Of a stretch of 64,000 bases of DNA, positions 7,069 to 56,424 are shown in pieces. Made by a program: the position numbers and the translations under genes. The DNA comes from Pseudoclavibacter sp. (lineage in GTDB: Bacteria > Actinomycetota > Actinomycetes > Actinomycetales > Microbacteriaceae), in NCBI GenBank assembly GCA_047722305.1, contig JBDNYM010000006.1, positions 213 to 64,212 on the forward strand, written 5' to 3'. The notes under the pieces are model-generated. The model saw only the letters and a program-made list of their open reading frames with translations, was not told the DNA's origin and searched no databases. How positions within the stretch are numbered: the stretch's first letter is position 1; the number at the start of each line of letters is the position of its first letter.

Positions 7069-7083
7069 AAGAAGCGAACAACC

Positions 7084-7488
7084 ATGACCGACCAGAAGCC
7101 TTCCGTCCTCTTCGTCTGCGTCCACAACGCCGGCCGTTCCCAGATGGCCGCCGGCTATCTCCGCGAGTTGGCGGGCGACCGCGTCGAGGTCCGCTCCGCC
7201 GGGTCCATGCCCGCCGACCAGATCAACCCGGTCGCCGTCGAGGCGATGCGCGAGGAGGGCATCGACATCACCGCCGAACAGCCCAAGGTGCTCACCACCG
7301 AGGCCGTGCAGGCCTCCGACGTGGTGATCACGATGGGTTGCGGCGACGCTTGCCCGTTCTTCCCGGGCAAGCGGTACGAGGACTGGAAGCTCGACGACCC
7401 GGCGGGGCAGGGCATCGATGCGGTGCGCCCGATTCGCGACGACATCAAGGCCCGCGTCGAGACCCTCCTCGCCGAACTGCTCGTCTGA
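7084..7488 (+). CDS. arsC: Arsenate reductase, LMW-PTP / thioredoxin-coupled type.
   Basis: VLFVCVHNAGRSQMAAGYL P-loop (CX5R) and the downstream GCGDACP cysteines. Confidence 0.92.
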   Translation: MTDQKPSVLFVCVHNAGRSQMAAGYLRELAGDRVEVRSAGSMPADQINPVAVEAMREEGIDITAEQPKVLTTEAVQASDVVITMGCGDACPFFPGKRYEDWKLDDPAGQGIDAVRPIRDDIKARVETLLAELLV

Positions 7489-7503
7489 GGAGCTGCGAGC
7501 AGC

Positions 7504-7535
7504 GGAGGGGCAGAGGCCAATGGCCCTACCCCTCC
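7504..7535. terminator. Imperfect GC-rich hairpin between convergent operons.
   Basis: GGAGGGG...GGCCAATGGCC...CCCCTCC followed by GGTGTGTTT. It lies between the arsC stop (7488) and the stop of the minus-strand gene at 7624. Confidence 0.45.
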
Positions 7536-7623
7536 GGTGTGTTTCCGGGTCCGCGAACTTTACGGCGAACACCGTTGTGCCGTGAGGTGTGACCCAGTGA
7601 TCGCGTCACCGGTCGTTCTCGCT

Positions 7624-7932
7624 CTACCGGGATGCGCCTCGCATCGCTGCTTCGATCTGCTCCTGCGTGGGCGCTCCGGCGTACCCGCTTTCCGTCGCGT
7701 AGACCCGGCACGCCAGCGAGCGAACCGGGGCCGTCGGGAACAGGTCGACGTCGTCGAGGAGGATCGTGGGCGAGCCTCCGAACTGGGTGCTCGCCGCCTC
7801 GGCCTCGGTTCGGATCGTCACCAGCTCGACAGGAACGGCCCCGAGCCCGAGAGCATCCAGCGCCGCGCGTGCGTTGGCTTCGGCGATTGCCGTGTTCGGG
7901 CAGTCGACGATGTGCAGCAGTTCGACCTTCAT
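7624..7932 (-). CDS. Small thioredoxin-fold protein, last gene of the cmtR operon.
   Basis: 102 aa with MKVELLHIVDCPNT... at the N-terminus, a glutaredoxin/thioredoxin-like beta-alpha start with a DCP motif. 4-nt overlap with the ATPase stop. Confidence 0.65.
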   Translation of the reverse strand: MKVELLHIVDCPNTAIAEANARAALDALGLGAVPVELVTIRTEAEAASTQFGGSPTILLDDVDLFPTAPVRSLACRVYATESGYAGAPTQEQIEAAMRGASR

Positions 7933-17492: not shown

Positions 17493-17495
17493 CGG

Positions 17496-18869
17496 TCACT
17501 CCTTCGTCGGCTTGGGCGCGGGCGGGGTCGGGGTGGCCGGGCGTGGGCTCGGTGGCGCGGTCGGCGCAGACGTCGAGTGCGGTGGCGGCGCGCTGGCCTG
17601 CCCGGCACCGGCAGCGGCCGTCTCGGCCTCACCCGCCAACGCCGTCCCGGCCTTCGGCCCCGCCGTCGCGGCACCCTTCACCACCTGCGCACCGACCACG
17701 ACCGCAGCCGCCGGACCCGCAGCAGCAGCCCCCGCACCCGCTCCCGCCCCTGCTCCGGCACTGGCACCAGCACCGGCACTCCCGCTCGCACCAGCTCCCG
17801 CGCCGGCAGCACCTGCACCGCCGCTTCCAGCGGTCGAGGTGGGCTTCGGCGGCGCACCCGCACCGCCTCCCGAACCTCCGCCGCCGTCGCCGCTGGTCTG
17901 GCCGTCGAGTACCTTCTTCGGCCCGTCACCGGACGGCTTCGACGGCACCGGGATGGGACGGTTCAGTGCCCGCTTGGCGTCATCCTCCGCACCGGCCTGC
18001 CCGTAGTAGTCGGTGCCGACGAACGCGAGGAACCGATACGTCAGATACGGGGCGAACCCCGCCAACGCCATGAGCACGATCCCTGACAGCGGATCGGACA
18101 CCGAGGCCAGGTCGACGTCGATCGGTGCGGCGACCTGCGTGATCGCGACGAGGAAGATCACGACCAGCACGAGCTTGGACAAGATCAGGGCGCTGACGAA
18201 CATGGCCCACTTGCCGACCCAGCCGCGTGCCGCATCCCACGACGAGCCGGAGAACGCCAGCGGAGCCAGGGCGACCGCGACCAGCAGTAGCGACTTGCGG
18301 ATCAGCAGCGACAGCCACACGATCGCCGCCGAGGCGATCGCCAGGCCGGCCAGGAAGATCATGATGATCGCCCCGACACCGGGCGCGGCGATGGACAGCC
18401 CGGACAGCGCCAGGACGAGGGCGGCGATCTTGTCGCCCATCGTCTCGGTGGTCTCGCCTGCGGCCTGGATAATGCCGACGCAGAGCTGGTCGGTGATTTC
18501 CAGCAGCAACGCGGTCAAGGTGATGACCACGAAGGAACCGAGCACGGATTTCCCCAACCCGAGCGCGGCCCGGGTGAGGGCGGTGGGGTCGCGGCGGATC
18601 ATGCCGGTGATGAGCTGCAAGCAGAAGAACAGCAGCATCACGAACACGGCGATGCCGAACACGAGGTTGAACACCGACACGAATCCGGGCCGCTGCACGT
18701 CCACGAGCGTGGTGGTGTCGAAGACCGTCCAGACGGCCTCGAACAGCCACCCGGCCGCGCCGCCCATCGCGCTGGCCAACCAGTCGAACGGGGCCGACAC
18801 CAGCGTGGCGGCGGCTTCGCCGGCCACGTCGCAGACGGTGGAAATCACCGGGACATCGCAAATGCCCAT
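17496..18869 (-). CDS. VirB6/TrbL-like polytopic membrane protein with a Gly/Ala/Pro low-complexity tail.
   Basis: At least 6 predicted TM helices by eye. The C-terminal 130 aa are G/A/P/S repeats. Confidence 0.7.
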   Translation of the reverse strand: MGICDVPVISTVCDVAGEAAATLVSAPFDWLASAMGGAAGWLFEAVWTVFDTTTLVDVQRPGFVSVFNLVFGIAVFVMLLFFCLQLITGMIRRDPTALTRAALGLGKSVLGSFVVITLTALLLEITDQLCVGIIQAAGETTETMGDKIAALVLALSGLSIAAPGVGAIIMIFLAGLAIASAAIVWLSLLIRKSLLLVAVALAPLAFSGSSWDAARGWVGKWAMFVSALILSKLVLVVIFLVAITQVAAPIDVDLASVSDPLSGIVLMALAGFAPYLTYRFLAFVGTDYYGQAGAEDDAKRALNRPIPVPSKPSGDGPKKVLDGQTSGDGGGGSGGGAGAPPKPTSTAGSGGAGAAGAGAGASGSAGAGASAGAGAGAGAGAAAAGPAAAVVVGAQVVKGAATAGPKAGTALAGEAETAAAGAGQASAPPPHSTSAPTAPPSPRPATPTPPAPKPTKE

Positions 18870-40404: not shown

Positions 40405-43400
40405 GTGGTGACGGTTTCGATGCGCGTGATGACGGCGGGCGATGGTTACAAGTACCTGCTCCGCTCGGTCGCGGCCGGGGATGGTGACCGTTCCCTCTCG
40501 ACGCCGTTGACGCGCTACTACGCCGAAGCGGGAAACCCGCCCGGGTTCTGGATCGGCCAGGGCCTCGCCGCCCTCGGGCACGGCGAACTGACCCCCGGCT
40601 CGGAAGTGTCGGAAGCGCAACTCGAGCTGCTGATCGGGTCGGGTCGTGATCCGATCACCGGCGACCCACTCGGCAAGGCGTACCCGACGTTCGCGCCTCT
40701 GGCCGAGCGGATCGAACGCCGCATCAACACCCTCGACGCAGAACTGGGGCCAGCCGCGCGGGCGGTCGAGACGGCACGGATCGAGGCCGAGGAAACCGAG
40801 CGCGGAACCCGGCGCGCGGTGGCCGGGTTCGACTTCACCTTCTCAGTCCCCAAGAGTGTGTCGGCGCTATGGGCGGTCGCCGATGCCGGCACTCAGGCGT
40901 TGATCGCGGACGCGCATCATGCGGCGGTTGCAGAGCTGGTTGCGTTCCTCGAACGCGAGGTTGCAGTCACCCGCACCGGAGCGGACGGCCCCGAGGGCAC
41001 GGTTGCGCACGTCGATGTCCTCGGTGTCGCTGCAACCGCGTTCGACCACTACGACTCCCGGGCGGGCGATCCGCAGTTGCACACTCATGTCGTCATCAGC
41101 AACAAGGTCAAGACCGCCCAAGACGGCAAGTGGCGCGCCCTCGCCGGGCGTCCGATGCACGCCGCGGTCGTCGCGGTCTCCGAGCTCTACAACGCCGCCC
41201 TGGCCGACCAGCTCACCCGCACCCTCGGCATCGACTGGGAGAGCCGCGACCGGGGACGGGACCGCAACCCCGCCTGGGAACTCGTCGGCGTCACCGAAGA
41301 ACTGATCGGTGAGTTCTCCACCCGGTCACATCACATCGAGGCCGAGAAAGACCGCCTCATCGTCGAGTACGTCGCAACGCACGGCAGGCAGCCCTCCGCC
41401 CGGGTCGTGTTGAAGCTCCGCGCCCAAGCCACCCTTGCCACGAGGCCCGAGAAGCACATCCACTCGCTCGCAGACCTCACCCGCCAATGGCGGGAACGCG
41501 CCGGCCGGGTGCTCGGGCAGGACCCGACCGGCTGGGCACGCACCCTCACCCACCAGGCAGCGGACGCACCGGCTCGGGTGTTGCGGGCCGACGACGTGCC
41601 CCTGGATGTCGTGCGCGAGGTCGGCCTGTCGGTGATGGCGGTCGTGAGTGAGAAGCGGTCGACGTGGACGCGCTGGAACCTGCACGCCGAAGCATCCCGG
41701 CAGTTGATGGGCTGGCGGTTCGCCTCGATGCTGGATCGGGAGGCGATCACCGGGCTCGTGGTCGATGCCGCCGAGCAAGCCTCGCTCCGCCTGACTCCGC
41801 CCGAACTCGCCTCCAGCCCGGTGCAGTTCCGCCGAGCCGATGGCACCTCACGGTTCCGGCCATACGCTTCTGTGCTGTTCTCGTCCGAAGCTCTGCTCGC
41901 CGCCGAAGACCGGCTCCTTGCCCGCGCCGACTCTCTCGCTGGGCCGGTGGTGTCGTTGGAGACGGTCGAGCAGATCACCAGCCGCCCCGACCCAAGGGGC
42001 CGGATGCTCGGCGAGGATCAAGCCGCAGCCCTGGCCGCGATCGCCGTCTCCGGCCGCACCCTCGACGTGCTGGTCGGCCCCGCCGGCGCAGGCAAGACCA
42101 CCGCCATGAACGCGCTCCGCCGCGCATGGGAGAAGGAGCATGGCAGCGGCTCGGTCGTCGGCCTCGCACCATCCGCCGTCGCCGCCCAGGTGCTGGCGGA
42201 CGATCTGGGGATCACGACCGAGAACACGGCGAAGTGGTGGCAGAACCACCTCATGCGCGGCACCACGTTCGAGGTGGGCCAGCTCGTCATCATCGACGAG
42301 GCATCCCTGGCCGGCACCGCCTCCCTCGACCGCATCACCGCCGAAGCCGAACAAGCCGGCGCGAAGACGCTGCTGGTCGGTGACTGGGGGCAACTCCAAT
42401 CGGTCGACGCCGGCGGTGCGTTCTCGATGCTCGTCCACGCCCGCGACGACACCCCCGAGCTACTCGACATCCACCGCTTCACCCACGAGTGGGAGAAGAC
42501 CACCTCCCTCCAACTCCGCCACGGCCGTCCCGAGGCGATCGACACCCTCGCAGGCCACGACCGCATCATCGGCGGCGAACAAGAAGCCATGATCGACGCC
42601 GCCTATGGCGCATGGCGACAAGACCTCGCCACCGGGCGAGCGTCGATCCTCGTCGCCGAAACCCACGAAACCGTCACCGCCCTCAACGCCCGAGCGCGGG
42701 CGGACCGGATCATCGACGGCACCGTGCACGGCACCCGTGAAGTCGGCCTGCATGACGGAACGGCCGTGTCCGAGGGCGATCTGGTCATCACCCGTCACAA
42801 CGACCGCCGCCTACGCAACGGCCGATCCTGGGTCCGCAACGGCGACAGCTGGACCGTCACCGGCGTTCACGCGGACGGGTCGGTCAGCATCCGCCCGGTC
42901 GGCCGCCGGCTCCGTGGCGGAATCGTCCTGCCCGCCGACTACGTGGCCGAACACCTCGACCTCGGCTACGCCATCACCGCCCATAGAGCCCAGGGAGTGA
43001 CGACCGACACGGCGCACGTCATCGCGACCGCGACCACGACGCGGGAGAACTTCTACGTCGCCATGACCCGCGGCGCGGCCGGGAACTATACCTACGTTGT
43101 CCTCGATCGGCCCGACGACAGCCACGGGGTGCCGCACCCCAGCGACAACCCTGACGCCACCGCCCGGTCGGTGCTCTACGGCGTGATCCAGCACATCGGC
43201 GCCGAACTGTCCGCGCACGAGGCGATCACCGCCGAGCAGGAACGGTGGAGCAACATCGGCCAGCTCGCCGCCGAGTACGAAACCATCGCCCAAGCCGCCC
43301 AACACGACCGCTGGGGCACCCTCCTTGCCGCCGCCGGACTCGCGAGTGCGCAGGTCGATGCCGTGCTCGACTCTGACGCCTACCCGGCCCTGTCGGCCGA

Positions 43401-43968
43401 GCTTCGGCATGCCGAAGCCAACCACCACGACCTCGACACCCTGCTGCCGCGTCTCATAGCCGCGCGGGGGCTGGGCGATGCGGACGACATCGCTTCGGTG
43501 ATCCACGCCCGCGTCGCCCGCGCCACCGCCCGGCCAGCCGGATCCGGCCGTACCCGCAAACCGCCTCGGTTCATCGCCGGCCTCATCCCGTACGCGGACG
43601 GGTCGATGGCCGACGATATGCGCCAAGCCCTGGACGAACGCCACGAGCTGATCGAAGCCCGCGCCGACTCCGTACTCACGGGCGCGCTCACCGACAAGGC
43701 ACTGTGGACAACCCAACTCGGCCCGGTACCGAAGGACACGAAGCAGCGGACGGCCTGGCGACGTGCCGCCGTCATCGTCGCCGCGTACCGGGACCGCTAC
43801 CAGATCACCGACGACCGAACCCCGCTCGGCCCCGCACCCCAGAGCACCCGGCAGAAGATCGACCGCGCCCGGGCCGAAGCCGCGCTCAGGGAAGTCAATG
43901 CCGGTACGTCCGCACCCGAGGCCGGGCGCCCGGTGACGCAGGCCGTGACTCGCGGTCCTCGTCTCTGA
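40405..43968 (+). CDS. MOBF-family relaxase-helicase (TrwC/TraA-like).
   Basis: N-terminal MRVMTAGDGYKYLLRSVA... with YYAE...PGFW and HxDxxxxHxH-type HTHVVISN. Central GPAGAGKTT Walker A with LVIIDEASL, and a RecD-like C-terminus (AITAHRAQGVT). Confidence 0.9.
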   Translation: MVTVSMRVMTAGDGYKYLLRSVAAGDGDRSLSTPLTRYYAEAGNPPGFWIGQGLAALGHGELTPGSEVSEAQLELLIGSGRDPITGDPLGKAYPTFAPLAERIERRINTLDAELGPAARAVETARIEAEETERGTRRAVAGFDFTFSVPKSVSALWAVADAGTQALIADAHHAAVAELVAFLEREVAVTRTGADGPEGTVAHVDVLGVAATAFDHYDSRAGDPQLHTHVVISNKVKTAQDGKWRALAGRPMHAAVVAVSELYNAALADQLTRTLGIDWESRDRGRDRNPAWELVGVTEELIGEFSTRSHHIEAEKDRLIVEYVATHGRQPSARVVLKLRAQATLATRPEKHIHSLADLTRQWRERAGRVLGQDPTGWARTLTHQAADAPARVLRADDVPLDVVREVGLSVMAVVSEKRSTWTRWNLHAEASRQLMGWRFASMLDREAITGLVVDAAEQASLRLTPPELASSPVQFRRADGTSRFRPYASVLFSSEALLAAEDRLLARADSLAGPVVSLETVEQITSRPDPRGRMLGEDQAAALAAIAVSGRTLDVLVGPAGAGKTTAMNALRRAWEKEHGSGSVVGLAPSAVAAQVLADDLGITTENTAKWWQNHLMRGTTFEVGQLVIIDEASLAGTASLDRITAEAEQAGAKTLLVGDWGQLQSVDAGGAFSMLVHARDDTPELLDIHRFTHEWEKTTSLQLRHGRPEAIDTLAGHDRIIGGEQEAMIDAAYGAWRQDLATGRASILVAETHETVTALNARARADRIIDGTVHGTREVGLHDGTAVSEGDLVITRHNDRRLRNGRSWVRNGDSWTVTGVHADGSVSIRPVGRRLRGGIVLPADYVAEHLDLGYAITAHRAQGVTTDTAHVIATATTTRENFYVAMTRGAAGNYTYVVLDRPDDSHGVPHPSDNPDATARSVLYGVIQHIGAELSAHEAITAEQERWSNIGQLAAEYETIAQAAQHDRWGTLLAAAGLASAQVDAVLDSDAYPALSAELRHAEANHHDLDTLLPRLIAARGLGDADDIASVIHARVARATARPAGSGRTRKPPRFIAGLIPYADGSMADDMRQALDERHELIEARADSVLTGALTDKALWTTQLGPVPKDTKQRTAWRRAAVIVAAYRDRYQITDDRTPLGPAPQSTRQKIDRARAEAALREVNAGTSAPEAGRPVTQAVTRGPRL

Positions 43969-45179: not shown

Positions 45180-46187
45180 CTAGATCGAGCGCCCAGACCC
45201 GCCCGGCGCAGAGCGATAGCCGCCGAACTCGTGTCCAGCAGCGGATCGCGTCAGGTTCTTGCCGGTTGGCTCAGCGCCGTCGAGCAGCGCGATGACATCG
45301 CTGGCCCGAGTGACGACGGACGCGGCCCCTTGCTTGATGAGTTCGTTCGGGCCGTTGCTGACGGCACTGGTCACGGGGCCAGGCACCGCTCCGACACCCC
45401 GGCCGAGGCCAAGCGCGTTGAACACAGTCGTGAGCGACCCCGACCGTACGCCTGCCTCCGGGATCACGACACCACCGGAGAGTGCCGCCATCAGCCGGTA
45501 TCGCGCGATGAACCTGTCCCGGCTGGGCACAGCACCTGCCGGGAGTTCACTCACGAGCAGGCCGGTGTCACCGATCCGATCCAGCAGGTCGGTGTGCGCG
45601 GCCGGATAGCGGCGATCCAAGCCAGTTGCCAACACGACGATCGTCTGACCGGCGGCGGCGAGCACGCTCCGGTGCGCCGCACTGTCGATGCCGTAAGCGC
45701 CTCCGGCGATGACCACCCGTTCCTCATCGGCCAGCCCCGTCGCAAGTTCGTTGGTGACGTGTTCGCCGTAGTGGGTAGACGCGCGAGCGCCCGTGATCGT
45801 GACCCGATCGCTCAGCGCCGTCGCCAAGAACGACGATGCGCCCTGCGTCCACAGCACATACGGGGCGCGGTCGCCCAGCTCGTCCAGTCCGGCGGGCCAC
45901 TCCCGATCCGCCGGGATCAGCGTGCCGAACCCGTGCTGCTCAGCCTCGGCCACGCGCTCCATCAGGTCGGGCACGATCCGTGCTCGCAGGCGCTCGCGCC
46001 ACAACAGAACGTCGGCACGGCCCAGCCCCGTCACGTCATGATCGGACTCGACCAGGCTCAGCGTCGCCACGCCTCCGTGGCGACCCAGGATGTATCCGGT
46101 CGTCAGATCGTCCGGCTCAGCGATCATCGACAGCACGATTCGCGCCATCCGTTCGCCCCGCACCTGCTCCGCCAACGCGCCAGCCAT
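45180..46187 (-). CDS. dprA: DprA/Smf DNA-processing protein.
   Basis: Rossmann-like core VVIAGGAYGIDSAAHRSVLAAAGQTIVVLATGLDRRYPAAHTDLLDRIGDTGLLVSELPAG. Confidence 0.85.
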   Translation of the reverse strand: MAGALAEQVRGERMARIVLSMIAEPDDLTTGYILGRHGGVATLSLVESDHDVTGLGRADVLLWRERLRARIVPDLMERVAEAEQHGFGTLIPADREWPAGLDELGDRAPYVLWTQGASSFLATALSDRVTITGARASTHYGEHVTNELATGLADEERVVIAGGAYGIDSAAHRSVLAAAGQTIVVLATGLDRRYPAAHTDLLDRIGDTGLLVSELPAGAVPSRDRFIARYRLMAALSGGVVIPEAGVRSGSLTTVFNALGLGRGVGAVPGPVTSAVSNGPNELIKQGAASVVTRASDVIALLDGAEPTGKNLTRSAAGHEFGGYRSAPGGSGRSI

Positions 46188-46320: not shown

Positions 46321-47460
46321 GTGACACTCGAACGAGGAGGTACCTGCGTGTCCGTCGCCGCCCAGCCGAGCGCGAAGAGCAGCGCTCCTCAGCTCGACGA
46401 CATGCCTGTCCCGGTGACCTCGGTGGCACCCGCGCCTTCTCTTCCTGGTTCGCCCGTGCCTCCCGCCCATCGCATCTACTTCTACTCGCCCGATGAATGG
46501 GAAGTCTTCATCGCAGAATGGGCTACCGGCCTCGCCGTCTCGTACCGGCAGATCAAGCGGCTCGGTGGACCTAGCGATCGTGGTGTAGATGTGGCCGCGT
46601 TCAAGACTGAGCGAGGGCTTGAAGACTCGTGGGACTGCTTTCAGGCGAAGCACTACGCGGACTCACTCAATCTGTCGGACGCGATCCCGGAGATGCTGAA
46701 GCTTTTCCGAGGGGTCGTGGACGCCTACTACGTGCTCCCGGACCAGTATGTTTTTGTCGCTCCTCGTGGCTGTGGCAGTTCCCTCAACCGTCTTCTGAGC
46801 AAGCCGACCGAGTTGCGGAAGAAGTTCCTCGAAGTGGTCGATTCCCGTGGTGCAGCAACCAAGGGGCTCGATGAGGTGACGTTGCAGTCAATCCGTGATC
46901 TTGCAGCAGCCTCAGACTTCTCGATTTTTCGATCCCTTGAACTCAACGAGATGCTGGATGTCCACCGCACAACTCCGTACTACGCAGCTCGGTTTGGTAC
47001 GGCATTGCCCGCGAGACCTCCGGTTGGTCAGACGCCAACCGCCCCGGCCCCTGTCGAGGCGGTCTATGTCAAGAAGCTCGTTGACGTCTACAACGAGCAA
47101 GACCCCGTGGCCTGTTCGGATACTGAGTCAGTCACCACCCACGCGAAGTACGGCGCGCATCTTCAGCGCCAGCGGGAGGCCTTTTACTCGGCGGAGGCGC
47201 TACGTCTCTATGCCAGGGACTCGGTGCCGGACGGCACGTTTGAGTTACTGCAAGGCGATGTCTACACGGGCGTCATTGACACAGCGGAAGCGGACCATGC
47301 CAGTGGTCTACATCGACTCCGCGCGGTCCTCTCGCAATCAGGCCAGCTGGACCTCGGTGCCCATGCCCTTATCTCCGTGTCGAGAATCGAGGATCGCCAA
47401 GGCATCTGCCATCAACTTGCCAATGCGGACCGACTGACCTGGGTGGCGAACGATGAGTAG
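46321..47460 (+). CDS. Candidate ABC-3C effector: Mrr-like restriction-endonuclease-fold N-domain plus a helical C-domain.
   Basis: GGPSDRGVDVAAFKTERGLEDSWDCFQAKHY fits the D...D...QxK nuclease core. The likely start is the GTG at 46348, after GAGGAGG. Lower GC than the flanks. Confidence 0.6.
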   Translation: MTLERGGTCVSVAAQPSAKSSAPQLDDMPVPVTSVAPAPSLPGSPVPPAHRIYFYSPDEWEVFIAEWATGLAVSYRQIKRLGGPSDRGVDVAAFKTERGLEDSWDCFQAKHYADSLNLSDAIPEMLKLFRGVVDAYYVLPDQYVFVAPRGCGSSLNRLLSKPTELRKKFLEVVDSRGAATKGLDEVTLQSIRDLAAASDFSIFRSLELNEMLDVHRTTPYYAARFGTALPARPPVGQTPTAPAPVEAVYVKKLVDVYNEQDPVACSDTESVTTHAKYGAHLQRQREAFYSAEALRLYARDSVPDGTFELLQGDVYTGVIDTAEADHASGLHRLRAVLSQSGQLDLGAHALISVSRIEDRQGICHQLANADRLTWVANDE

Positions 47461-47932
47461 CCCTCTCAACAGCCCCCTCGAAGTGGGATTGCGTGTCCTC
47501 ATGATCCTTGTCGAGGCTTTTCCAGCACATCTAGACATCAACCGCCTGGTGCTGCTCGATCACGGGCTCCTACACAGCGCGGACCTTGATGGTCCAGAGA
47601 GCTTGCACCCGCCGATTCCTGTCCGAGTGGGCGAACTCGGAGTCAAAAGACAGCACATCGAAGATGGCCTCCAAGTCATGATCCGTGCCGGCCTCGCAGA
47701 GATGTCTGCCGAGGACAGCGGCATCGAGTTTTGGGCCAGCGAGAGCACCGAAGGCTTCCTAGGGCTACTTGAGAGCGACTATGCGCGCGCCCTGCATGAT
47801 CGTGCGCAGTGGGTCGTCGGGGAACTTGGGGCCGTTGACGATAGCCGTCTGCGAGAGCGCATGCGAGAGGTTTCGTCACACTGGTCCGAGGAGTTCGAGG
47901 TTGTGCTGGCGGAGAGCGGAGGCGACTTCTGA
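47453..47932 (+). CDS. Candidate ABC-3C middle component (small helical protein).
   Basis: 159 aa. It has an 8-nt overlap with the upstream gene and a 1-nt overlap with the downstream ATPase. No catalytic motif. Confidence 0.55.
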   Translation: MSSPLNSPLEVGLRVLMILVEAFPAHLDINRLVLLDHGLLHSADLDGPESLHPPIPVRVGELGVKRQHIEDGLQVMIRAGLAEMSAEDSGIEFWASESTEGFLGLLESDYARALHDRAQWVVGELGAVDDSRLRERMREVSSHWSEEFEVVLAESGGDF

Positions 47933-49806
47933 TGGGACGACTGACGCTTTCTCACCTGACCTTCACCGGTACGAATGTTGCTGCGGCGTCGGTTGACTTC
48001 AGCCCACATGTGACAGTGATTCACGGCCCGTCGGACACCGGCAAGTCCGTCATCGTTGACGCGATCGACTTCGTGCTCGGCGCAAAGGAACTCAAGGAGA
48101 TACCGGAGCGAAACGGCTACAGTCGAGTCCTGTTGGGAATCCAGCTTCCTAGTGGCGACCGCATCACGCTCGCGCGGGCGGTGGATGGCGGCGGAGTCGC
48201 CCTTTATCGAAGCGATGTCCGTGTTGAACCGTCGAGTCCTCCCGACGAGACCCTCGCCGCGAAGCACAGCTCGGCAACCACCGCGAACGTCTCCCGTTTC
48301 CTTCTTGAGCAAGTCGGTCTCGATGAGCAGCAGGTGCGTAAGAACTCACGAAACGACACCAACATGCTCAGCTTCCGCGATCTGACGCGACTGTGCCTCA
48401 TCGGTGAGACCGAGATGCAGGCGGAGATAGCGCCTGGACTCAGCGGGAACCCAGTCAACAAGACCAAGGAAGTCTCGGTTCTGAAGCTCCTCCTCACCGG
48501 GGAAGACGACTCGGCGCTGGTCGCCGTGGCATCACCACAGGAGCAGAAGCGTCTGCGTGGTGCTCGGCAAGAGGTTGTCGAGAGGATGCTCGGGCAACTT
48601 GAAGCACAGCTCCAAGACGTCGCAGAGCCAGCCGAACTCATGGCGCAACTGGGCAAACTGAACCGAACAATCGATGAGCACAGCGCGACAATCGGAGGCC
48701 TCGCGGAGAAGCGAGGGCAGCTTCTCGCGGAACGCAGCCGACTGCAAGAGATCGAGAGAACCGAGCGCGTCGAGTACTCAGACGCAGCAGCGCTCCGCCA
48801 GCGATTCAACCTCTTGCTGAAGCAGTATGAGAGTGACCTCGCACGGCTCGAAATGATCGCCGAAGCGGGGAACCTTCTCGGGTACTTCCGACGCGGCACG
48901 TGCGTCTTCTGCGGTGCGGAACCGGATAGCCAGCACCTCAACATGAGCTGCGAAGGCGACATCACAAGTTTTGGCATGTCCGTCGAGTCCGAGACCCGCA
49001 AGACTCAAGGTCTTCACGAAGACCTGCTTGTGACCATCGACAGCCTCAACGCTCGATCGGAGAGCCTGAAAGTCTCGATCAGAGCAGCGCATCGTGAGTC
49101 AATCAGCCTTCAGAAGAAGATCGACAAGCTCGACGGCGAGATGAGCCCGCACCAAGGCGACCTTCGCGACCTCCTTACGAAGCGCAGTGAGGTCGAGAAG
49201 CACCTCGGACTCTATGAACAAGTGAAGTCTCTCGAAGCCATGATCCGCAAGATCATTGACGAGACCGACGTGGAAGTGGCGACTGCAGTCGCGGGCCTGA
49301 GCCTCACCGCAGTGCGCGAGTTCTCGACCGAGATTTCCAAGCGCCTCACGGAGTGGGACTATCCAGACGCAGATTCCGTTCGTTACGACCGGAATGAACT
49401 AGACATCATCGCCGGAGATCAACAACGATCGGCGCACGGCAAGGGTGTCCGAGCGATTCTCCACGCTGCTTTCACGCTCTCTCTTGCGCAATACTGCTTC
49501 AACCGAGAGTTGCCGCACCCCGGCTTCGTCGTTCTCGACTCTCCACTCGTCACGTACCGTCCGCCAGATCAATCCACAGACACTGATGAAGAGCCCCCCG
49601 AAGGCGTCGTTCGTGCCTTCTACCGTGACATCCAGGAGAACTTCGACGGTCAAATCATCATCATGGAAAACACTGACCCACTCGAACCGCTTGGATCGAA
49701 CGCACTCGATGTACCGTTCACGAAGCGCGTTGATGTCGGGCGGTATGGGTTCTTGCCCGCCGTGGCCACTGAGACCCAGCCCGACGCTCTCCCGCTAGAT
49801 GAGTAG
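47932..49806 (+). CDS. SMC/ABC-type coiled-coil ATPase (candidate ABC-3C ATPase).
   Basis: N-terminal Walker A VIHGPSDTGKSV, a long heptad-like middle with a central CVFCG...C cluster, and C-terminal Walker B GFVVLDSPLVTY. Confidence 0.75.
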   Translation: MGRLTLSHLTFTGTNVAAASVDFSPHVTVIHGPSDTGKSVIVDAIDFVLGAKELKEIPERNGYSRVLLGIQLPSGDRITLARAVDGGGVALYRSDVRVEPSSPPDETLAAKHSSATTANVSRFLLEQVGLDEQQVRKNSRNDTNMLSFRDLTRLCLIGETEMQAEIAPGLSGNPVNKTKEVSVLKLLLTGEDDSALVAVASPQEQKRLRGARQEVVERMLGQLEAQLQDVAEPAELMAQLGKLNRTIDEHSATIGGLAEKRGQLLAERSRLQEIERTERVEYSDAAALRQRFNLLLKQYESDLARLEMIAEAGNLLGYFRRGTCVFCGAEPDSQHLNMSCEGDITSFGMSVESETRKTQGLHEDLLVTIDSLNARSESLKVSIRAAHRESISLQKKIDKLDGEMSPHQGDLRDLLTKRSEVEKHLGLYEQVKSLEAMIRKIIDETDVEVATAVAGLSLTAVREFSTEISKRLTEWDYPDADSVRYDRNELDIIAGDQQRSAHGKGVRAILHAAFTLSLAQYCFNRELPHPGFVVLDSPLVTYRPPDQSTDTDEEPPEGVVRAFYRDIQENFDGQIIIMENTDPLEPLGSNALDVPFTKRVDVGRYGFLPAVATETQPDALPLDE

Positions 49807-50003: not shown

Positions 50004-50366
50004 ATGATCCGCCTACTGATGATCGCCAGCATCCATATCCGCGACTTCATGCGTCGCTACATGCCGAGCAACATCCTGCTCGACCTCATCCGCACCCGCC
50101 GCGGCCTCAAGTGGGGCGTCCCAGCCATGCTGCTGGCGATCCCGTACTTCGGCGTCGCCTACTGGTGCACCACGATCATCGGCAACGGCGGCCCCGGCTG
50201 GCTCAACCTCGTCGTCCTGATCTGCGTGTGGAGCGGCTTGAAGATGCTGTGGATCGGCCCCGTCAGCCTGATCCACCTACTCCGAGCCAGGACCAGCGAA
50301 CGCCGTGCCCGCCGCGACCACATCCGCCGCAACCACGACGAGCCCGTGCAGACCGGAGTCATGTGA
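50004..50366 (+). CDS. Small membrane protein.
   Basis: AGAGGAG RBS and two or three TM helices (WGVPAMLLAIPYFGVAYWCTTII, WLNLVVLICVWSGLKMLWIGPV). Confidence 0.55.
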   Translation: MIRLLMIASIHIRDFMRRYMPSNILLDLIRTRRGLKWGVPAMLLAIPYFGVAYWCTTIIGNGGPGWLNLVVLICVWSGLKMLWIGPVSLIHLLRARTSERRARRDHIRRNHDEPVQTGVM

Positions 50367-50605: not shown

Positions 50606-51076
50606 CTACTTCCGAGTTGGCTGGCGACCGGATGGCCGGATCGTGTCACCACAGGCAACGATGCCCGCACGGGCGCCGTCCTTGCTGATCCCGAGCTGGG
50701 CGGCGACCTGCGGCAAGGTCAGCCCTTCCTCGTACAGCCGCGCCGCCTCGCGACGGATGCGCTCGGGAAGACCCGGCCGCCTCACCGGCACGCCCGCCCG
50801 GCGCACCAGCTCGCTGACCGTTCCACGATGCACCCCGAAGGTGGCGGCCAGCTCCCGCACCGGCACGCCCTCAGCGTAGGAGTCGAGCAGGGCCGCACGA
50901 TTCGAGGCATTCAAACGAGTTTGAGACTGACGCGATTTTTCGACCACCGGACCCCTGACGTCGGCCCGCCGAGTAGGCTGGGGACGTGCTCCACGACGCC
51001 GGGATGCCTTGTGGACACGGGAAATCAGAGTCGTGAGTGGCCTCCTGGGGTTTGAGAAGCACCTACGGAGGACCAC
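50606..51076 (-). CDS. Protein with two resolvase-type HTH units, paralogue of 55957-56424.
   Basis: YAEGVPVRELAATFGVHRGTVSELVRRAGV and YEEGLTLPQVAAQLGISKDGARAGI. No serine-recombinase catalytic domain. The true start is uncertain (GTG near VVEKSRQSQ is possible). Confidence 0.65.
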   Translation of the reverse strand: MVLRRCFSNPRRPLTTLISRVHKASRRRGARPQPTRRADVRGPVVEKSRQSQTRLNASNRAALLDSYAEGVPVRELAATFGVHRGTVSELVRRAGVPVRRPGLPERIRREAARLYEEGLTLPQVAAQLGISKDGARAGIVACGDTIRPSGRQPTRK

Positions 51077-51093: not shown

Positions 51094-51114
51094 ACCCCCG
51101 GGAATCCCGGGGGT
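51094..51114. terminator. Perfect hairpin ACCCCCGGGA-A-TCCCGGGGGT.
   Basis: 10-bp arms read directly from the sequence. On the minus strand it is followed by TTTCG. It lies about 165 nt downstream of the 956-aa gene stop. Confidence 0.45.
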
Positions 51115-51278: not shown

Positions 51279-54149
51279 CTACTCATCGACGTCATCCACG
51301 CTGACTTTGCCGTCGAGCACGGCCTGAACTTGATCTTCGAGGGCGAGATTCCCCTGCGCCCCGAGTTCGTTCATGTATGCCTCGGCTTGGCCTTTCAGGT
51401 CGCCATCTGACGACAGCATGGCGTTCGCGATGACGACAGGAATCGCGTGCCGGCTCAGGTCGAACGCGACCCGTCCGCCTTCGCTGCGCCCGCCTAGAAG
51501 AAGCTTTAGCACCGCGAGCGCAGCGGCAGGGTCTGTGGTTGATGCCTGCGCCAGCTCCTTCCCGATCATGTACCGCTCGGTAGCGATGGTGGGATCGAGT
51601 TCGAGTGCATCTCTCAGCCGGGGAAGCCACCACTCCGAGGTGAACGAGCTACTCTTCGCCAGCCAGTAGATGCCCTCGAGCTCTTTGCTGTCTCCGGGAT
51701 TCTCGCGAACGTGGTCAATGCGGTCGTCCCAGAGAGCCGCGAAGCGATCGCGAATTGACTCTTCCACCGAAGAGGCATGGAAGAAGGACCATGCAACCTT
51801 CCCAAGAGCGTCACCGCGAACCTCAGGACTGGCCTCGGAAAAGAAGGCCTCGAAAACGTGGTCTTCCGCGTCGATGTGCCCATACACGAACGCGTCTATG
51901 ACCCACTCGCCGATGCGCGGCAGTGGGTCGGACTCCCCTTTCCAACCGGCAGCGAGGGAGTCGCCGATGTCGATGGCCGAGAGCATTGCCGGAGTCAGGA
52001 GCTCATACATCAGTCGGTTGTAGCGGTGTGTCGCCATCGCTGTCGTGAGGACGATCTGCTGCTCGATCGAAATGCCTTCGCGAGTACCCACCAGCTCGTC
52101 CAGGTGGGCGTTGATCCAGGCAGGGGCAGAACTCAGAAGTCGACCAAGACCTTCGCCAAGAGCGGCCCGGCCGGCGCCATGTTGATCGACGCGCGCCGCC
52201 TCGGCCTCGATCGCCTTGAGTGCGTCGTCTCGCCACGGCGCGTCCTCCGAACCGGTCGCGGCGACGATGAGCGCCCGGACCCGGCTTGGCCACTGCCAAT
52301 TGAGCGACATGCTAAGTGGATCCCACCCTGAACCTTCGTGCCGGTAGGTATCGTAGTTGACCCAGGCGTCTTCGTCATCCGAGCGATAAATTAGGAGCCG
52401 TGCGAACCGTTCCTCGTACTCGGCAGGCACGACCACCTTGCCACGCTTCTTGAGTAGCTCCTCGAGCAACCCGATGGCGGCGTCCTTGGCACCGCCGTAG
52501 TCCTTGTCGTCGTCGAAGTCACTGCCTTCAACCGGGTACGGGGAAGCAAGCGGGTGGTCAAGCACGTGCTCCACCAACTCTGCAACCTGCGGCCACTCGA
52601 GTTCAAGATCTGCTTTGGTGGCTGCTTCCCATCCCTGCAGGATCGCGCGCAGGTAAGTCGGGCGGAGCTGGCTGCCCAATTGGTGGACTCCTCCGAGCGC
52701 AAGTGGGTTAGTCGTCAAGAGAGCCGAAAGCGCTCTACCTTGGCCTTCATGCGAAGGCTCGGGGCCCCATCCGTCGCCCTTGTCGTGCCAGCTCGCAAGG
52801 TGGACGACGAGTTCCGCAGGCGCCATTGCCACCATTGCATCCTGGCCGGTATGAGGGTTGGGACCGGTCCAGCTTGTAATTCGCCCCATGGGCTTCAGGG
52901 GATCGTCGATTGCGCCGAGTGCTTCATCAAGCTTCGCGAGGTCTTTGCCTAGCTCAGCGGGCAGGGCTTCGGGTCCGATCGCAGAGAGCCAGCTATGCCG
53001 GTATCGCTGTGCCCTCGCTTGAATGCTCTCCTCCCACTCCGGATCAGTGAGACCTTCGGGACGCGGAAGTCTCTCACGCATCCAGTTGAGATCGACCTCA
53101 AATGCCTTCGCGAGGAATGGCGCTATGACCGATGTCGCAGAAGCGTCTGCCCGAGCAACAGCCCTCGCCAGCTGCGCGTACTCAACGCGAAGATGCTCCT
53201 CGTCCGATTGCGGGTCGCCAAGTAGATCCCGCGCCACGAGCACCAGGGCGCCCGTGTCTACTCCCCGGTCGAGGGCCTGACGAAGAGCCTCGGCGATAAC
53301 GAAGATGGCGATCTTCCTCAACAGCTTCACACCGTCACGTAGCAGAACAGCGACCGTGTCAGCCGGCTCCCTGAGTGCCGCCTGGATCGCAACATCTCGA
53401 ACCGCATCAATGAGCGCGTCCTCCGGCCGATCCGAATGGTCATCGCGCGAGTCAATCGACGACCGATCCCTGGCGCTGAAGTCGTACTTGTCTGAAGTAT
53501 GCCCGGACGACTTGACGTATGCCGTCAGCCAACCAACGAGTGCCTTGAGCGCGTTGTCGCCTAGCGCGGGAACCATTCGCGGCAGTTCCGCTTCGTACCA
53601 GTACTCCTCAAGGAGAAGCTCCGGCTTTCGAATCGACCTGGTCTCGTCGCCCGGTCGAGGTTCGAACAGAGCGTTCGCGAGCCAACGACCGAGGCGAGTT
53701 TGACCATCTTCGAGCAACTTGATCGCAACGGAGACAAGGGAACGAGGGTCAGTTCTCCAGCCGAATCCCGACTGCACCCAGGCCTTGATGAGCGGTTCGA
53801 GTCGAGCGCTTGATTCGGCCGGAATCTGAGATCCGATCTCAAACACGGCGCGACGAACCCAGGCGTTGTTGCTCTCCTTTAACTGGAGCAGCACGTCGAC
53901 TACCTCGTCGGGCGCTTGTGGCGCTATCCGAGTTAGGTAGGCAATCTCGGGCCAGTACGTGTCGCGGATGTATCCGTCGCCGGTGGGTTCCGGCTCCGGT
54001 GGGTTCGTGAAGGCCCCCGCCTCCAGGAGGGGACGCACCCAAAGAGGATTCTCGAGACCCTCGTAGAACACTCGTCGAAGCTGGAACGTCGGAATCTTGA
54101 GCAAGGCGGCGCGCACCTGCTCTGCCGTTGGAGCACGGAAGCTAGGCAT
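51279..54149 (-). CDS. Large (956 aa) all-helical, repeat-like protein of unknown function.
   Basis: Uninterrupted ORF with no Walker, nuclease, protease or TM motifs that I can see. Leu/Ala/Glu-rich and HEAT/ARM-like by eye. 8-nt overlap with the upstream gene. Lower GC. Confidence 0.7.
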   Translation of the reverse strand: MPSFRAPTAEQVRAALLKIPTFQLRRVFYEGLENPLWVRPLLEAGAFTNPPEPEPTGDGYIRDTYWPEIAYLTRIAPQAPDEVVDVLLQLKESNNAWVRRAVFEIGSQIPAESSARLEPLIKAWVQSGFGWRTDPRSLVSVAIKLLEDGQTRLGRWLANALFEPRPGDETRSIRKPELLLEEYWYEAELPRMVPALGDNALKALVGWLTAYVKSSGHTSDKYDFSARDRSSIDSRDDHSDRPEDALIDAVRDVAIQAALREPADTVAVLLRDGVKLLRKIAIFVIAEALRQALDRGVDTGALVLVARDLLGDPQSDEEHLRVEYAQLARAVARADASATSVIAPFLAKAFEVDLNWMRERLPRPEGLTDPEWEESIQARAQRYRHSWLSAIGPEALPAELGKDLAKLDEALGAIDDPLKPMGRITSWTGPNPHTGQDAMVAMAPAELVVHLASWHDKGDGWGPEPSHEGQGRALSALLTTNPLALGGVHQLGSQLRPTYLRAILQGWEAATKADLELEWPQVAELVEHVLDHPLASPYPVEGSDFDDDKDYGGAKDAAIGLLEELLKKRGKVVVPAEYEERFARLLIYRSDDEDAWVNYDTYRHEGSGWDPLSMSLNWQWPSRVRALIVAATGSEDAPWRDDALKAIEAEAARVDQHGAGRAALGEGLGRLLSSAPAWINAHLDELVGTREGISIEQQIVLTTAMATHRYNRLMYELLTPAMLSAIDIGDSLAAGWKGESDPLPRIGEWVIDAFVYGHIDAEDHVFEAFFSEASPEVRGDALGKVAWSFFHASSVEESIRDRFAALWDDRIDHVRENPGDSKELEGIYWLAKSSSFTSEWWLPRLRDALELDPTIATERYMIGKELAQASTTDPAAALAVLKLLLGGRSEGGRVAFDLSRHAIPVVIANAMLSSDGDLKGQAEAYMNELGAQGNLALEDQVQAVLDGKVSVDDVDE

Positions 54150-54810
54150 CTGTCCCCTCCTCTGTTGCGTTTATCTCCGCAAGCAGGTCGTCGATGGAGT
54201 GCCGCGTGGCGAAAAAGGCGGTGACGACGCCGTCTAGCAATGCTTCGAATACACCGATGTGCTCTCTGAGTTCGTCGTCGGTCGGCAAGTCAGCGTCCGC
54301 AACATCGCGCTCGTGGAGGTGCGCCCACTTCACGAAGTAGTCACGTGACTCGATCCAACGAGACACGGCCACGTGGCTCGCATTGGCATCGTCCGTGATC
54401 AGCGCAGCGACATCGTCCCTTACCCGCCGCCTCTCGTGGATGGCGGCCTTGAACAGTTTGTCTATTGCCGTGGCCACTTCTTGAGGCACTGGGATGGAAT
54501 CGCCCTCTCGGTAAAGGTCGAGCTCTGGGAATCTCGCGAGAAGCTCCGGGAGCGCTTTCACCTGTTGGCCAGAGGACGGCTTGAACCGAGGGGCAGTCGG
54601 GCGGCCAAGTGCGCCAAGTACCCGATTCATTACCTCTCGCATGCAGTGCGCGATGAGCGCCACTCGCGTGCGAGGATCAAAGACTTCCAAGTCACCACTC
54701 AATAGCGCCAAGGCCGTTCGATAGGAGTTCGCAAGCTCCGTTCGCTTGTCCTGCAACGCGGCCAGAATCCGTTGCTGCCTCTCGTTCATGAATGCGTCCG
54801 ACCCGGCCAT
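54142..54810 (-). CDS. Hypothetical helical protein (222 aa), partner of the 956-aa protein.
   Basis: The ATG at 54810 is 6 nt after the stop of the 46-aa ORF. MAGSDAFMNERQQRILAALQDKRTELANSY...; contains RVALIAHCMREVMNRVLG. Confidence 0.65.
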   Translation of the reverse strand: MAGSDAFMNERQQRILAALQDKRTELANSYRTALALLSGDLEVFDPRTRVALIAHCMREVMNRVLGALGRPTAPRFKPSSGQQVKALPELLARFPELDLYREGDSIPVPQEVATAIDKLFKAAIHERRRVRDDVAALITDDANASHVAVSRWIESRDYFVKWAHLHERDVADADLPTDDELREHIGVFEALLDGVVTAFFATRHSIDDLLAEINATEEGTDA

Positions 54811-54816
54811 TGCGAT

Positions 54817-54957
54817 CTACTCGTTGACCGCGCCGCTTGCGAAAAGTTCGGCCTGCTCGAGTACGAGTTCGACGGCCTTCTCTTCCGCGTCGGTCGGGTA
54901 GTCGTTCTTCGCGAGGAGACGCCGCACCTTCGATCGCATTGCGGCGGGTCGTGCCAT
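54817..54957 (-). CDS. 46-aa ORF resembling the extreme C-terminus of type I restriction HsdR subunits.
   Basis: My translation: MARPAAMRSKVRRLLAKNDYPTDAEEKAVELVLEQAELFASGAVNE. GGAGGAG lies 8 nt upstream of the ATG, and an in-frame stop lies 20 codons upstream. It is below the ORF-track size cutoff. Confidence 0.45.
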   Translation of the reverse strand: MARPAAMRSKVRRLLAKNDYPTDAEEKAVELVLEQAELFASGAVNE

Positions 54958-55275
54958 ACCTGGGTCTCCTCCACACGAGATGGTTACGTCTACTTGTCCA
55001 CAAGGATCCCACTCAGGCTAGCGGCGTTGTCCGACATGACCACGGCTCAACTGCGGCGAACAGATTACGAGAACGAACTCGAATCGGGCTCTGCGCACTC
55101 TGGGTGGGGGTGGGTGAGTAGCTCGGGCGTGGCGTGACGGGGTGAGGCGGGTCCAGGTCTGGAGGATCGGTAGCGACCAAGCAACCTGTCCGTCCGGAGA
55201 CCTCGACCCGTGCCCAATGTTACGTGCTGCGCTGACGCGTGACCATGTTCTGCTGTCTACTGCGATCGCTGTGAA

Positions 55276-55890
55276 CTGCTCCTCGGACTCGATGAGCTCC
55301 GGGTGACCGGGATAGAGCATCGCGGCGATGGTGTGCTCGTGGTCGATGCGGAGTCGCCGCCGAGTCCGGTCGGCTGCCCGGGGTGCGGGGTGGTCGCGGA
55401 GTCTGCGGGGCGGAAAGCATTGGTCCTGACGGACGCGCCGATGGGCGGGCGCCCGGTGGCGGGTCCGGTGGCGCAAACGTCGCTGGCGGTGTCGCCAGGA
55501 CGGGTGCGGGGTGCGCTCATTCACGGAGCAGAACCCGGCCGTCGCCGCGGCGAACTTGACCGCCCGGGCTGTGACATCGGCGGTGGGACGATGCGCCGCG
55601 AGAACGCGCCGGTGCGCGGGATCGCCCGACAGTTACGTGTCGCCTGACGCACCGTCTGGAGCCACGTCGAAGCGGCCGCACCCTGAAGCAGTGGCGTGAC
55701 GCGTTCCTGGCCTACTGGACGACGGACCGCTCATCCAACGGCGGCACCGAGGCCGTGAACGGACTGATCGAACTCGCCCGCCGCGTCGCCCGCGGCTTCA
55801 CCAACTACGACAACTACCAACTCCGCATGCTCCTCATAGCCGGCGACCTCCACCCTGCCACCCCACCTAAAATACGCAGAGACCCTAATC
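55276..55890 (+). mobile_element. ISL3-family transposase remnant (frameshifted, internally deleted).
   Basis: The N-terminal fragment is LDELRVTGIEHRGDGVLVVDAESPPSPVGCPGCG...LTDAPMGGRPV. The C-terminal fragment is WRDAFLAYWTTDRSSNGGTEAVNGLIELARRVARGFTNYDNYQLRMLLIAG. An IR-like AAAATACGCAGAGACC lies near 55869-55884. Confidence 0.65.
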
Positions 55891-55956: not shown

Positions 55957-56424
55957 CTAGCGACGAGGACGGCGACCCTTCGGGCGAATCTGCCCGCCGT
56001 GATCGAGCACCGCTTGGCGCAGCGCCTCGTCGCTGATTCCCACTTGCCGAGCGACCTGCACAAGTATCATCCCGCTCTCGTAGAGGGATGACACTTGTGC
56101 TCCTTCGTCTGCAACCAAGCGCGCTGCTCGAACGGCGACGCCCGTGCGACGAACGAGCGCCGGGATCGTGCCACGATGCACCCCGTACTTCACACTGATC
56201 GCCTTGACAGGCACCCCGGCTTCGTAGTCAGCGACCAGCTCAGCCCGCTTCGACGGGCGCAGTCTTGTTTGAGACTGAACCCGGTTTTTTACTACCTGAC
56301 CTCGCGTATCGTGTCTCTCAGACGCCCGCGACCGAGGATGTCGACCCTCGGAGTCCGTGAGAACACGACGAATCAAGGTTTTCAGCCCAGGACGAGTGTT
56401 TGAGAATCGCCTGGGAAGGACCAC
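55957..56424 (-). CDS. Protein with two resolvase-type HTH units, paralogue of 50606-51076.
   Basis: MVLPRRFSNTRPG... versus MVLRRCFSNPRRP...; YEAGVPVKAISVKYGVHRGTIPALVRRTGV; YESGMILVQVARQVGISDEALRQAV. Confidence 0.65.
   Translation of the reverse strand: MVLPRRFSNTRPGLKTLIRRVLTDSEGRHPRSRASERHDTRGQVVKNRVQSQTRLRPSKRAELVADYEAGVPVKAISVKYGVHRGTIPALVRRTGVAVRAARLVADEGAQVSSLYESGMILVQVARQVGISDEALRQAVLDHGGQIRPKGRRPRR

Follow-up and report, generated by a model that had tools for sequence, protein, structure and literature searches.

The subject of this analysis is a group of three minus-strand open reading frames (ORFs) at positions 51279-54957 of a 64,000-nt stretch of Pseudoclavibacter sp. DNA (contig JBDNYM010000006.1), the whole of which is referred to as the window. 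The locus is probably the remnant of a five-gene cassette, hsdM-hsdS-hsdR-222-956, whose last two genes encode proteins of 222 aa and 956 aa. The surviving pair would be a split immune protein, made up of a sensor of the type found in Dsr1 and Avs7 and an N-terminal domain in the position of an effector. A preliminary description, made from the letters of the DNA, had presented the three ORFs (46, 222 and 956 aa) as one operon. The ORF coordinates confirm the strand, the 6-nt gap between the 46-aa and 222-aa ORFs and the 8-nt overlap between the 222-aa and 956-aa genes. The operon of three genes does not stand; comparison with relatives identifies the 46-aa ORF as a stub of hsdR and the other two as the halves of one protein, which is fused in many relatives. 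The features of the locus are as follows.

51279-54149, minus strand: gene of the 956-aa α-solenoid sensor subunit, a putative Dsr1/Avs7-type sensor domain as a separate gene (ORF, AlphaFold2 model, PADLOC, hhalign, dN/dS).
54142-54810, minus strand: gene of the 222-aa all-helical N-terminal (effector-position) subunit (ORF, synteny, fusions, AlphaFold2 model, dN/dS).
54817-54957, minus strand: 46-aa ORF, assigned as an hsdR 3′ stub, a pseudogene remnant (Pfam T1RH-like_C; comparison with intact hsdR).
54944-55036: junction sequence (deletion/insertion), common to locus L008 of Agromyces bauzanensis and containing GGAGGAG...ATG (blastn).
55264-55856, plus strand: ISL3-family transposase remnant, internally deleted (tblastn, DNA identity, Pfam).

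At every locus with upstream sequence, the gene immediately before the 956-aa homologue is a homologue of the 222-aa gene. The sources were 44 species genomes (44 loci were recovered when 185,579 species genomes were scanned with a motif), further assemblies and metagenome contigs, and the co-occurrence check proposed in the preliminary description returns a conserved syntenic pair. Both genes are under strong purifying selection; the ratio of nonsynonymous to synonymous substitution (dN/dS) is 0.08-0.10 at dS 0.9-1.9 for each, comparisons with loci without restriction-modification (R-M) genes included. In three lineages (P0048, P0023 and P0055), the genes are fused in frame, the 222-like domain preceding the solenoid, and the fused forms are single stand-alone genes. 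The fusions and the stand-alone fused genes indicate that the window encodes a split version of a single protein of ~1,170 aa. An exhaustive profile search of 1.84 billion representatives gave 3,915 clusters (50% identity) at E<=1e-3 and 1,304 at E<=1e-30, and the N-terminal 222-like domain was present in 47 of the 52 representatives listed with a length of 1,100 aa or more. Nine long relatives with no detectable 222-like domain or with an atypical sensor match were examined for alternative effectors; they gave no Pfam domain and no SIR2. No relatives were found in viral contigs, and the plasmid search (tblastn) gave a single distant match, in Halocatena salina. Members of the family in NCBI include Microbacterium barkeri GCM10017576_32160, Pseudarthrobacter psychrotolerans GU243_08915 and, in fused form, Micromonospora sp. 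MED01 MED01_005088. Because some relatives have a low-GC amino acid composition and one locus has 43% GC, the family is judged to reach beyond Actinomycetota. The distribution is patchy and the neighbours are variable and mobile, with type I R-M genes, Abi_C, GmrSD, patatin, Fic, SocA, integrases, relaxases and transposases at other loci. Downstream Abi_C-like and helix-turn-helix (HTH) genes, considered as further components, are present only in subsets of loci.

The AlphaFold2 model of the 956-aa protein is an all-helical solenoid (mean predicted local distance difference test score, pLDDT, 87.6; predicted template modelling score 0.55) with a low-confidence hinge at residues 423-428. The protein is strongly acidic (155 D+E vs 98 K+R). 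The helical character of both proteins had been predicted correctly, as had the want of any ATPase, nuclease, protease or membrane motif in the 956-aa protein; neither protein has such a domain in Pfam or NCBIfam or a Walker A motif. Searches of Pfam, NCBIfam and PHROGs gave no match for either protein, and sequence-profile searches of the PDB with three alignments gave none. Foldseek and PADLOC had been suggested as further checks. The first returned only generic HEAT/ARM solenoids for the 956-aa model (template modelling score, TM, 0.15-0.3; E ~3e-4), the best being CAND1, MMS19, FANCI and karyopherins, whereas PADLOC returned Dsr1, recurrently across the family, and identified LmuB in the window. 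The Dsr1 model is matched by 24 of the 28 members of the split family (best E 7.5e-13) and by 24 of 27 distant fused members (best E 2.5e-18; for example, model positions 716-985), 48 of 55 in total, always outside the SIR2 part of the model. Residues 425-531 of the window protein match model positions 727-831 of 1227 (E 3.8e-4). Among 5,027 PADLOC models, Dsr1 is the sole recurrent family; one member also weakly matched OloA.

The plasmid match in Halocatena salina is an "ATP-binding protein" of 1,493 aa that has GPGGVGKS, a Walker A motif, at residue 200. The family profile aligns with it over 735 columns (hhalign, 97.6%, E 4.4e-12), residues 24-825 corresponding to residues 568-1373 of the Halocatena protein. 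Its predicted layout mirrors that of SeAvs7, a protein of 1,523 aa with its sensor at 561-1523 (PMC13581612). The C-terminal domain of Dsr1 is homologous to the Avs7 sensor (PMC13581612, Nature 2026). Both SeAvs7 and EcDsr1 are triggered by the phage major capsid protein, the bilobed sensor enveloping the HK97 fold, and non-STAND defence proteins with this sensor have a range of N-terminal domains, among them a HEPN-like domain in a protein of Streptomyces sp. NBC_00271; split versions also occur (PMC13581612). The matches to the Dsr1 model and the alignment with the Avs7-like ATPase indicate that the 956-aa protein is an entire sensor domain of the Avs7/Dsr1 type, with homology to the Avs7 sensor and to the C-terminal domain of Dsr1. 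This homology gives a place among described proteins to a locus for which the preliminary description had found none. At L076 (NZ_CP096023.1), the gene of the Avs7-like ATPase (4285-8766, plus strand) has an upstream neighbour on the opposite strand that is annotated as a HEPN-domain protein (1975-3288, minus strand), and transposases lie downstream.

In proteins with this sensor, an effector domain is expected at the N-terminus, on one polypeptide with the sensor or, in split forms, encoded by the adjacent gene, and the 222-aa domain, with a predicted effector role, occupies the position of the effector in Dsr1 and Avs7. In its AlphaFold2 model, seven helices form a bundle (pLDDT 82). In split and distant fused members alike, R58 and H164 are invariant and H55, E59 and N62 nearly so. 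An R49-x5-H55 string, conserved among close relatives (29 of 30), has HEPN-like spacing (Rx4-6H). Foldseek searches of the model against the PDB and BFVD gave no significant match and none to HEPN structures, and neither the domain nor 58 split or fused relatives gave a HEPN match in Pfam. The model pP_pnuc_1, a predicted all-α pPIWI-associated nuclease, was matched below threshold by 7 of the 58 members (best E 0.02). SIR2 was absent from the 222-aa and 956-aa proteins and from the 58 split or fused relatives at E<=5. We infer a hydrolytic, possibly RNase-like effector.

The truncation of the locus is read from its intact relatives. P0001, at 94% identity the nearest relative of the 956-aa protein, is encoded on a contig in the order hsdM (522 aa), hsdS (371 aa), hsdR (1045 aa, with a T1RH-like_C end), a 6-nt gap, and then the 222-aa and 956-aa genes. 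The same five-gene order and the same gap are found at L049/L050 (77% identical), L058 and L060. Colinearity of the window with L049 runs from 54945 to 51278, at 74% DNA identity across 3,676 nt, and the sequence upstream of 54945 is foreign. The 46-aa ORF aligns with positions 292-327 of the 329 of Pfam T1RH-like_C (E 4.5e-11), the extreme C-terminus of HsdR, so that its resemblance to an HsdR tail, already remarked on, holds; it shares 85% identity with the C-terminal end of the HsdR of L049, which is intact (1045 aa). Only 54823-54945 is derived from hsdR, and this corresponds to HsdR residues 1004-1044 of 1045. A type I R-M system comprises a full-length HsdR (HSDR_N nuclease and SF2 motor) together with hsdM and hsdS, and the window holds no such set; tblastn with HsdR, HsdM and HsdS found nothing in the 64 kb besides HsdR residues 1004-1044. 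The ISL3 remnant said to lie upstream was recovered on the plus strand by tblastn with the ISL3 transposase of L004, in two pieces, 55264-55458 (transposase residues 10-74, E 2e-6) and 55731-55835 (residues 387-421, E 1.6e-4), the middle being deleted. Its part at 55674-55856 is 78% identical in DNA to the ISL3 copies in L047, and there is a weak Pfam match to DDE_Tnp_ISL3.

Among roughly 50 non-redundant loci, about a third lie beside type I R-M genes. A complete hsdM-hsdS-hsdR set stands directly upstream at 8 loci, with a spacing of -4 to +6 nt except at L015 (~1.3 kb). These sets belong to three HsdR lineages: an EcoR124_C type (L004, L015 and L018) and two T1RH types (L042; L049, L058, L060 and the P0001 contig). 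L030 has hsdM-hsdS directly upstream of the pair, seven loci (the window, L005, L008, L033, L044, L045 and L046) keep only hsdR 3′ stubs, and at L075 a fused form lies directly upstream of hsdM-hsdS-Mrr-hsdR. Neither a type I gene nor a stub adjoins the pair at about 30 of the ~50 loci. Diverged hsdR stubs hidden at stand-alone pairs were considered and rejected: 123 stop-free segments from upstream of 38 other loci, scanned with Pfam, gave no further HsdR stubs; they gave one HsdM_N fragment and antitoxin, integrase, transposase and PIN-like fragments. The linkage to type I genes is far above chance and is not obligatory. It is well known that type I loci harbour unrelated defence genes. In our reading, the pair is a defence passenger at the tail of type I operons and is transcribed with them; the R-M part has repeatedly been eroded and the passenger kept. 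The literature gave nothing relevant on HEAT-repeat or accessory genes after hsdR.

A linkage of this strength, across three HsdR lineages, with the hsdM-hsdS, stub and fused arrangements beside it, would also be expected if the pair were a dedicated accessory of type I R-M, acting through HsdR, HsdM or HsdS, either to sense phage anti-restriction proteins or to regulate restriction (cf. PrrC/EcoprrI), and were an orphan in the window. We judge this improbable. The loci without adjoining type I genes or stubs speak against it (R-M elsewhere in those genomes is possible), as do the stand-alone fused genes, the strong purifying selection that persists on the pair after loss of the R-M genes and the common presence of unrelated defence genes at type I loci. 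The homologous Dsr1 and Avs7 proteins, moreover, act on their own (PMC13581612; 10.1101/2021.12.14.472415). A different combination, in which the 222-aa domain has an unrecognised effector fold (not SIR2, HEPN or a known nuclease) and the position after three hsdR lineages reflects real functional coupling, we consider rather unlikely. If it were true, a capsid-sensing abortive module would be expressed together with type I restriction, which might tune it, in a layered system whose abortive module catches phages that escape restriction.

That the pair is a helical scaffold or adaptor outside defence (in protein or Fe-S trafficking, or as a DNA repair clamp) is very improbable. It would account for the eukaryotic HEAT/ARM scaffolds as best Foldseek matches and for loci among housekeeping genes (L003; beside nrdEF in L001, L021, L028, L046 and L075), but TM values of 0.15-0.3 are generic solenoid likeness only and the housekeeping neighbours flank small inserted islets. 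The homology is specifically to a defence sensor, and the patchy distribution (44 loci from the 185,579 species genomes) with variable mobile neighbours argues in the same direction. A CAND1/MMS19/FANCI-like scaffold or DNA clamp was rejected on the generic nature of the matches and on the acidity of the protein, which speaks against a DNA clamp.

A conflict cassette of three components, with the 46-aa HsdR-tail peptide as a functional third subunit having its own ribosome binding site, is refuted by the comparative data and deserves scarcely any credence: the ORF is intact in the window, with GGAGGAG 8 nt before its ATG and 6 nt from the next gene, and its tail region has a dN/dS of 0.15 against intact hsdR, but the 6-nt gap and the stop codon are those of hsdR in intact operons, the start and the Shine-Dalgarno-like string lie in foreign junction DNA common to L008, and about 30 loci have no stub at all. 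In blastn, window 54944-55036 matches L008 9226-9134 (83% over 94 nt) with an identical breakpoint and with GGAGGAG...ATG included. The first codons and the supposed ribosome binding site derive from this junction sequence, and the site is accordingly not a dedicated one; start codon and Shine-Dalgarno-like string arose from the junction. Because the stub is frameshifted in L008, with 21 nt (7 codons) deleted, and lacks a start codon in L005, where the breakpoint differs, the 46-aa ORF is a pseudogene fragment of hsdR left by deletion. Stubs at other loci have 33-116 aa and two unrelated HsdR C-terminal types. The low dN/dS of the tail mostly reflects time spent within a functional hsdR. The preliminary description had itself named an absent or unconserved small ORF as a finding that would count against it, and the ORF is decayed in L008, startless in L005 and absent at about 30 loci.

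The remnant of an hsdM-hsdS-hsdR-222-956 cassette with a split immune sensor is thus the reading we prefer, the product most likely being an abortive-infection or immune sensor that consists of one protein, here split. On this reading, an ISL3-associated deletion took away hsdM and hsdS and left only the last 41 codons of hsdR. The two surviving genes would encode one immune protein in two translationally coupled pieces. On infection, the acidic solenoid is predicted to bind a phage structural protein, by homology most likely the newly made HK97-fold major capsid protein. Binding would alter the conformation or the oligomeric state of the complex and switch on the N-terminal domain, a predicted hydrolase and possibly a HEPN-like RNase around H55/R58/E59/N62/H164, and the outcome would be that phage replication or the infected cell is halted. 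The frequent position after hsdR would reflect co-transcription in a layered defence cassette, the pair itself being independent of R-M. A defence role, as the preliminary description had proposed, remains the best reading of the sensor homology and of the mobile, defence-rich pocket, with the activity itself predicted from these.

Several observations weigh against this reading. The window protein's own match to Dsr1 is weak (E 3.8e-4), and the matches to the Dsr1 hidden Markov model cover only about 100-280 residues per member. Foldseek retrieved no Dsr or Avs structure, from a PDB copy apparently without any for Dsr1 or Avs7. The family may already be among the 9,097 census proteins of PMC13581612. 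No nuclease, HEPN or other effector matches the 222-aa domain significantly, and the R of R49-x5-H55 is lost in the distant fused forms. The specificity of the sensor may have diverged from the capsid protein. The hsdR promoter region is lost and no promoter-like site was found; expression in this genome is presumed.

The pair lies in a mobile and defence-rich part of the window, where the ABC-3C-like neighbour and the mobile context noted earlier are borne out by a CTD6 protein, LmuB and a TrwC relaxase. The other features of this part are as follows.

40405-43968: TrwC relaxase gene.
45180-46187, minus strand: DprA/SLOG-like gene, divergent, adjoining the Lamassu/ABC-3C genes and downstream of the TrwC relaxase gene.
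46321-47460: ABC-3C CTD6 protein, neighbour of LmuB, the two together a Lamassu/ABC-3C system.
47932-49806: LmuB (PADLOC, E 1.8e-171).
50004-50366, plus strand: 120-aa ORF between LmuB and the HTH gene, with two hydrophobic stretches.
50606-51076, minus strand: HTH gene downstream of the 222/956 pair (Pfam HTH_23/HTH_38), listed as context.
51094-51114: perfect 10-bp inverted repeat ACCCCCGGGA-T-TCCCGGGGGT between the 956-aa gene and the HTH gene (repeat search).
55957-56424, minus strand: paralogous HTH gene beyond the ISL3 remnant (Pfam HTH_28/HTH_23), listed as context.

The low-GC pocket extends over ~46.3-56.3 kb and includes the Lamassu genes. The contrast in GC described before is real, at 0.60-0.63 in the pocket vs about 0.68-0.75 in the backbone, and is smaller than the roughly 55% vs about 72% given for it. 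Membership of the 222/956 pair in the adjacent Lamassu system was considered and rejected: the pair is on the opposite strand to LmuB and the CTD6 protein (46321-49806), and the neighbours examined at other loci carried no LmuB or Lamassu annotation, no systematic Lamassu scan having been run. The 120-aa ORF has no Pfam match and may be a small membrane protein.

The two HTH genes, which had been taken to enclose the operon, are indeed paralogous (48% identity over 155 aa) and co-directional, on either side of the unit and one of them beside the ISL3 remnant. They do not define the unit, the intact cassette being hsdM-hsdS-hsdR-222-956. The perfect 10-bp hairpin said to follow the operon also exists. 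Its arms are separated by a 1-nt spacer, and it is not a convincing terminator because it lies ~165 nt past the stop of the 956-aa gene, has no T-run and stands 18 nt upstream of the HTH start (51076); it was not called as a terminator and looks more like a candidate operator for the HTH protein. A multi-HTH gene stands convergent just after the pair in nearly all loci that keep hsdM-hsdS(-hsdR), and it could be a cassette regulator or part of a mobile element. Its positions are as follows.

L004: 13725-14000 and 15409-15618 (split by an ISL3 insertion).
L015: 12904-13190.
L030: 6823-7107.
L042: 12906-13121.
L049: 12916-13254.
Window: 50606-51076 and 55957-56424.

An Abi_C-domain gene directly follows the pair in two intact five-gene loci (L058, 13348-14085; P0001 contig, 12924-13661). 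At L004, a 276-aa gene (12881-13711) is in the Abi_C position; it has no PHROGs match, and the called 264-aa product has no Pfam match. The gene in this position may be an additional defence passenger of the cassette. In Micropruina (L047, 5768-12248), the pair is broken by ISL3 insertions (copies at ~6222-7465 and 17151-18395), and the family can thus be pseudogenised by the insertion sequence family that accompanies the deletion in the window. The pair, or a defence islet with the pair in it, lies directly downstream of nrdF in Microbacterium, Agromyces, Arthrobacter and a metagenomic actinobacterium (nrdF at L001 7467-8441, L028 8155-9174, L046 7685-8659 and L075 3-446), and in Mycobacterium (L021) it lies between nrdE (7100-9271) and nrdF (17604-18575). 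The class Ib ribonucleotide reductase region nrdEF seems to be a hotspot where defence islets integrate in Actinomycetota.

The analysis turns a pair of "hypothetical proteins" into a testable immune sensor, from a family that is in none of Pfam, NCBIfam, PHROGs and PADLOC (beyond the Dsr1 matches). It would extend the Dsr1/Avs7 class of capsid sensors to a subfamily with an uncharacterised helical effector, common in Actinomycetota and present also in low-GC organisms. The natural split would offer a convenient system in which to follow signalling from solenoid to effector without a STAND NTPase. For annotation, defence-finder tools should recognise the 222/956 pair, and the small ORF should be entered as an hsdR pseudogene remnant. 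The locus also illustrates the dynamics of such islands, in which type I R-M cassettes are eroded and a passenger defence gene is retained.

Among known systems, PrrC-EcoprrI resembles the present cassette as a second-line defence gene that is co-transcribed with hsdR/M/S and is a separable module. PrrC, however, is an ATPase-HEPN anticodon nuclease, restrained by the R-M complex and encoded between the hsd genes, whereas the pair described here has no PrrC homology, is located after hsdR and in most relatives has no adjacent R-M. Dsr1 has the homologous C-terminal sensor and is a single-gene system, in which an N-terminal module of ~220-300 aa is followed by a solenoid of ~950 aa. In place of the SIR2 NADase of Dsr1, there is here an unrelated all-helical N-terminal module and, because the SIR2 domain is missing, NAD+ depletion is not expected. 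With Avs7 (for example, SeAvs7), the likeness lies in the sensor, which is homologous over about 800 residues to the Avs7-like archaeal STAND ATPase, and by analogy in the expected class of ligand, the phage major capsid protein. Avs7 has a STAND NTPase between effector and sensor; the present protein has none, and with it lacks the module for ATP-dependent tetramerisation, so that its activation must differ from that of Avs7. The N-terminal position is filled by SIR2 in Dsr1, by an effector and the STAND NTPase in Avs7, and by the 222-aa domain here. The non-STAND proteins with an Avs7/Dsr1-type sensor are closest in plan: they share the large α-solenoid sensor, the non-NTPase N-terminal domain in effector position and actinobacterial hosts, they include split versions, and they are single proteins that require no partner genes. 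The 222-aa domain could be the one labelled HEPN-like in PMC13581612; it gave no HEPN signal in Pfam or Foldseek. The clade of the window differs from them in being split into overlapping genes and in often being the last cistron of a type I R-M operon. By its homology, the family does belong to the wider class that reuses the Dsr1/Avs7 sensor and is itself neither Dsr1, because it has no SIR2, nor Avs7, because it has no NTPase.

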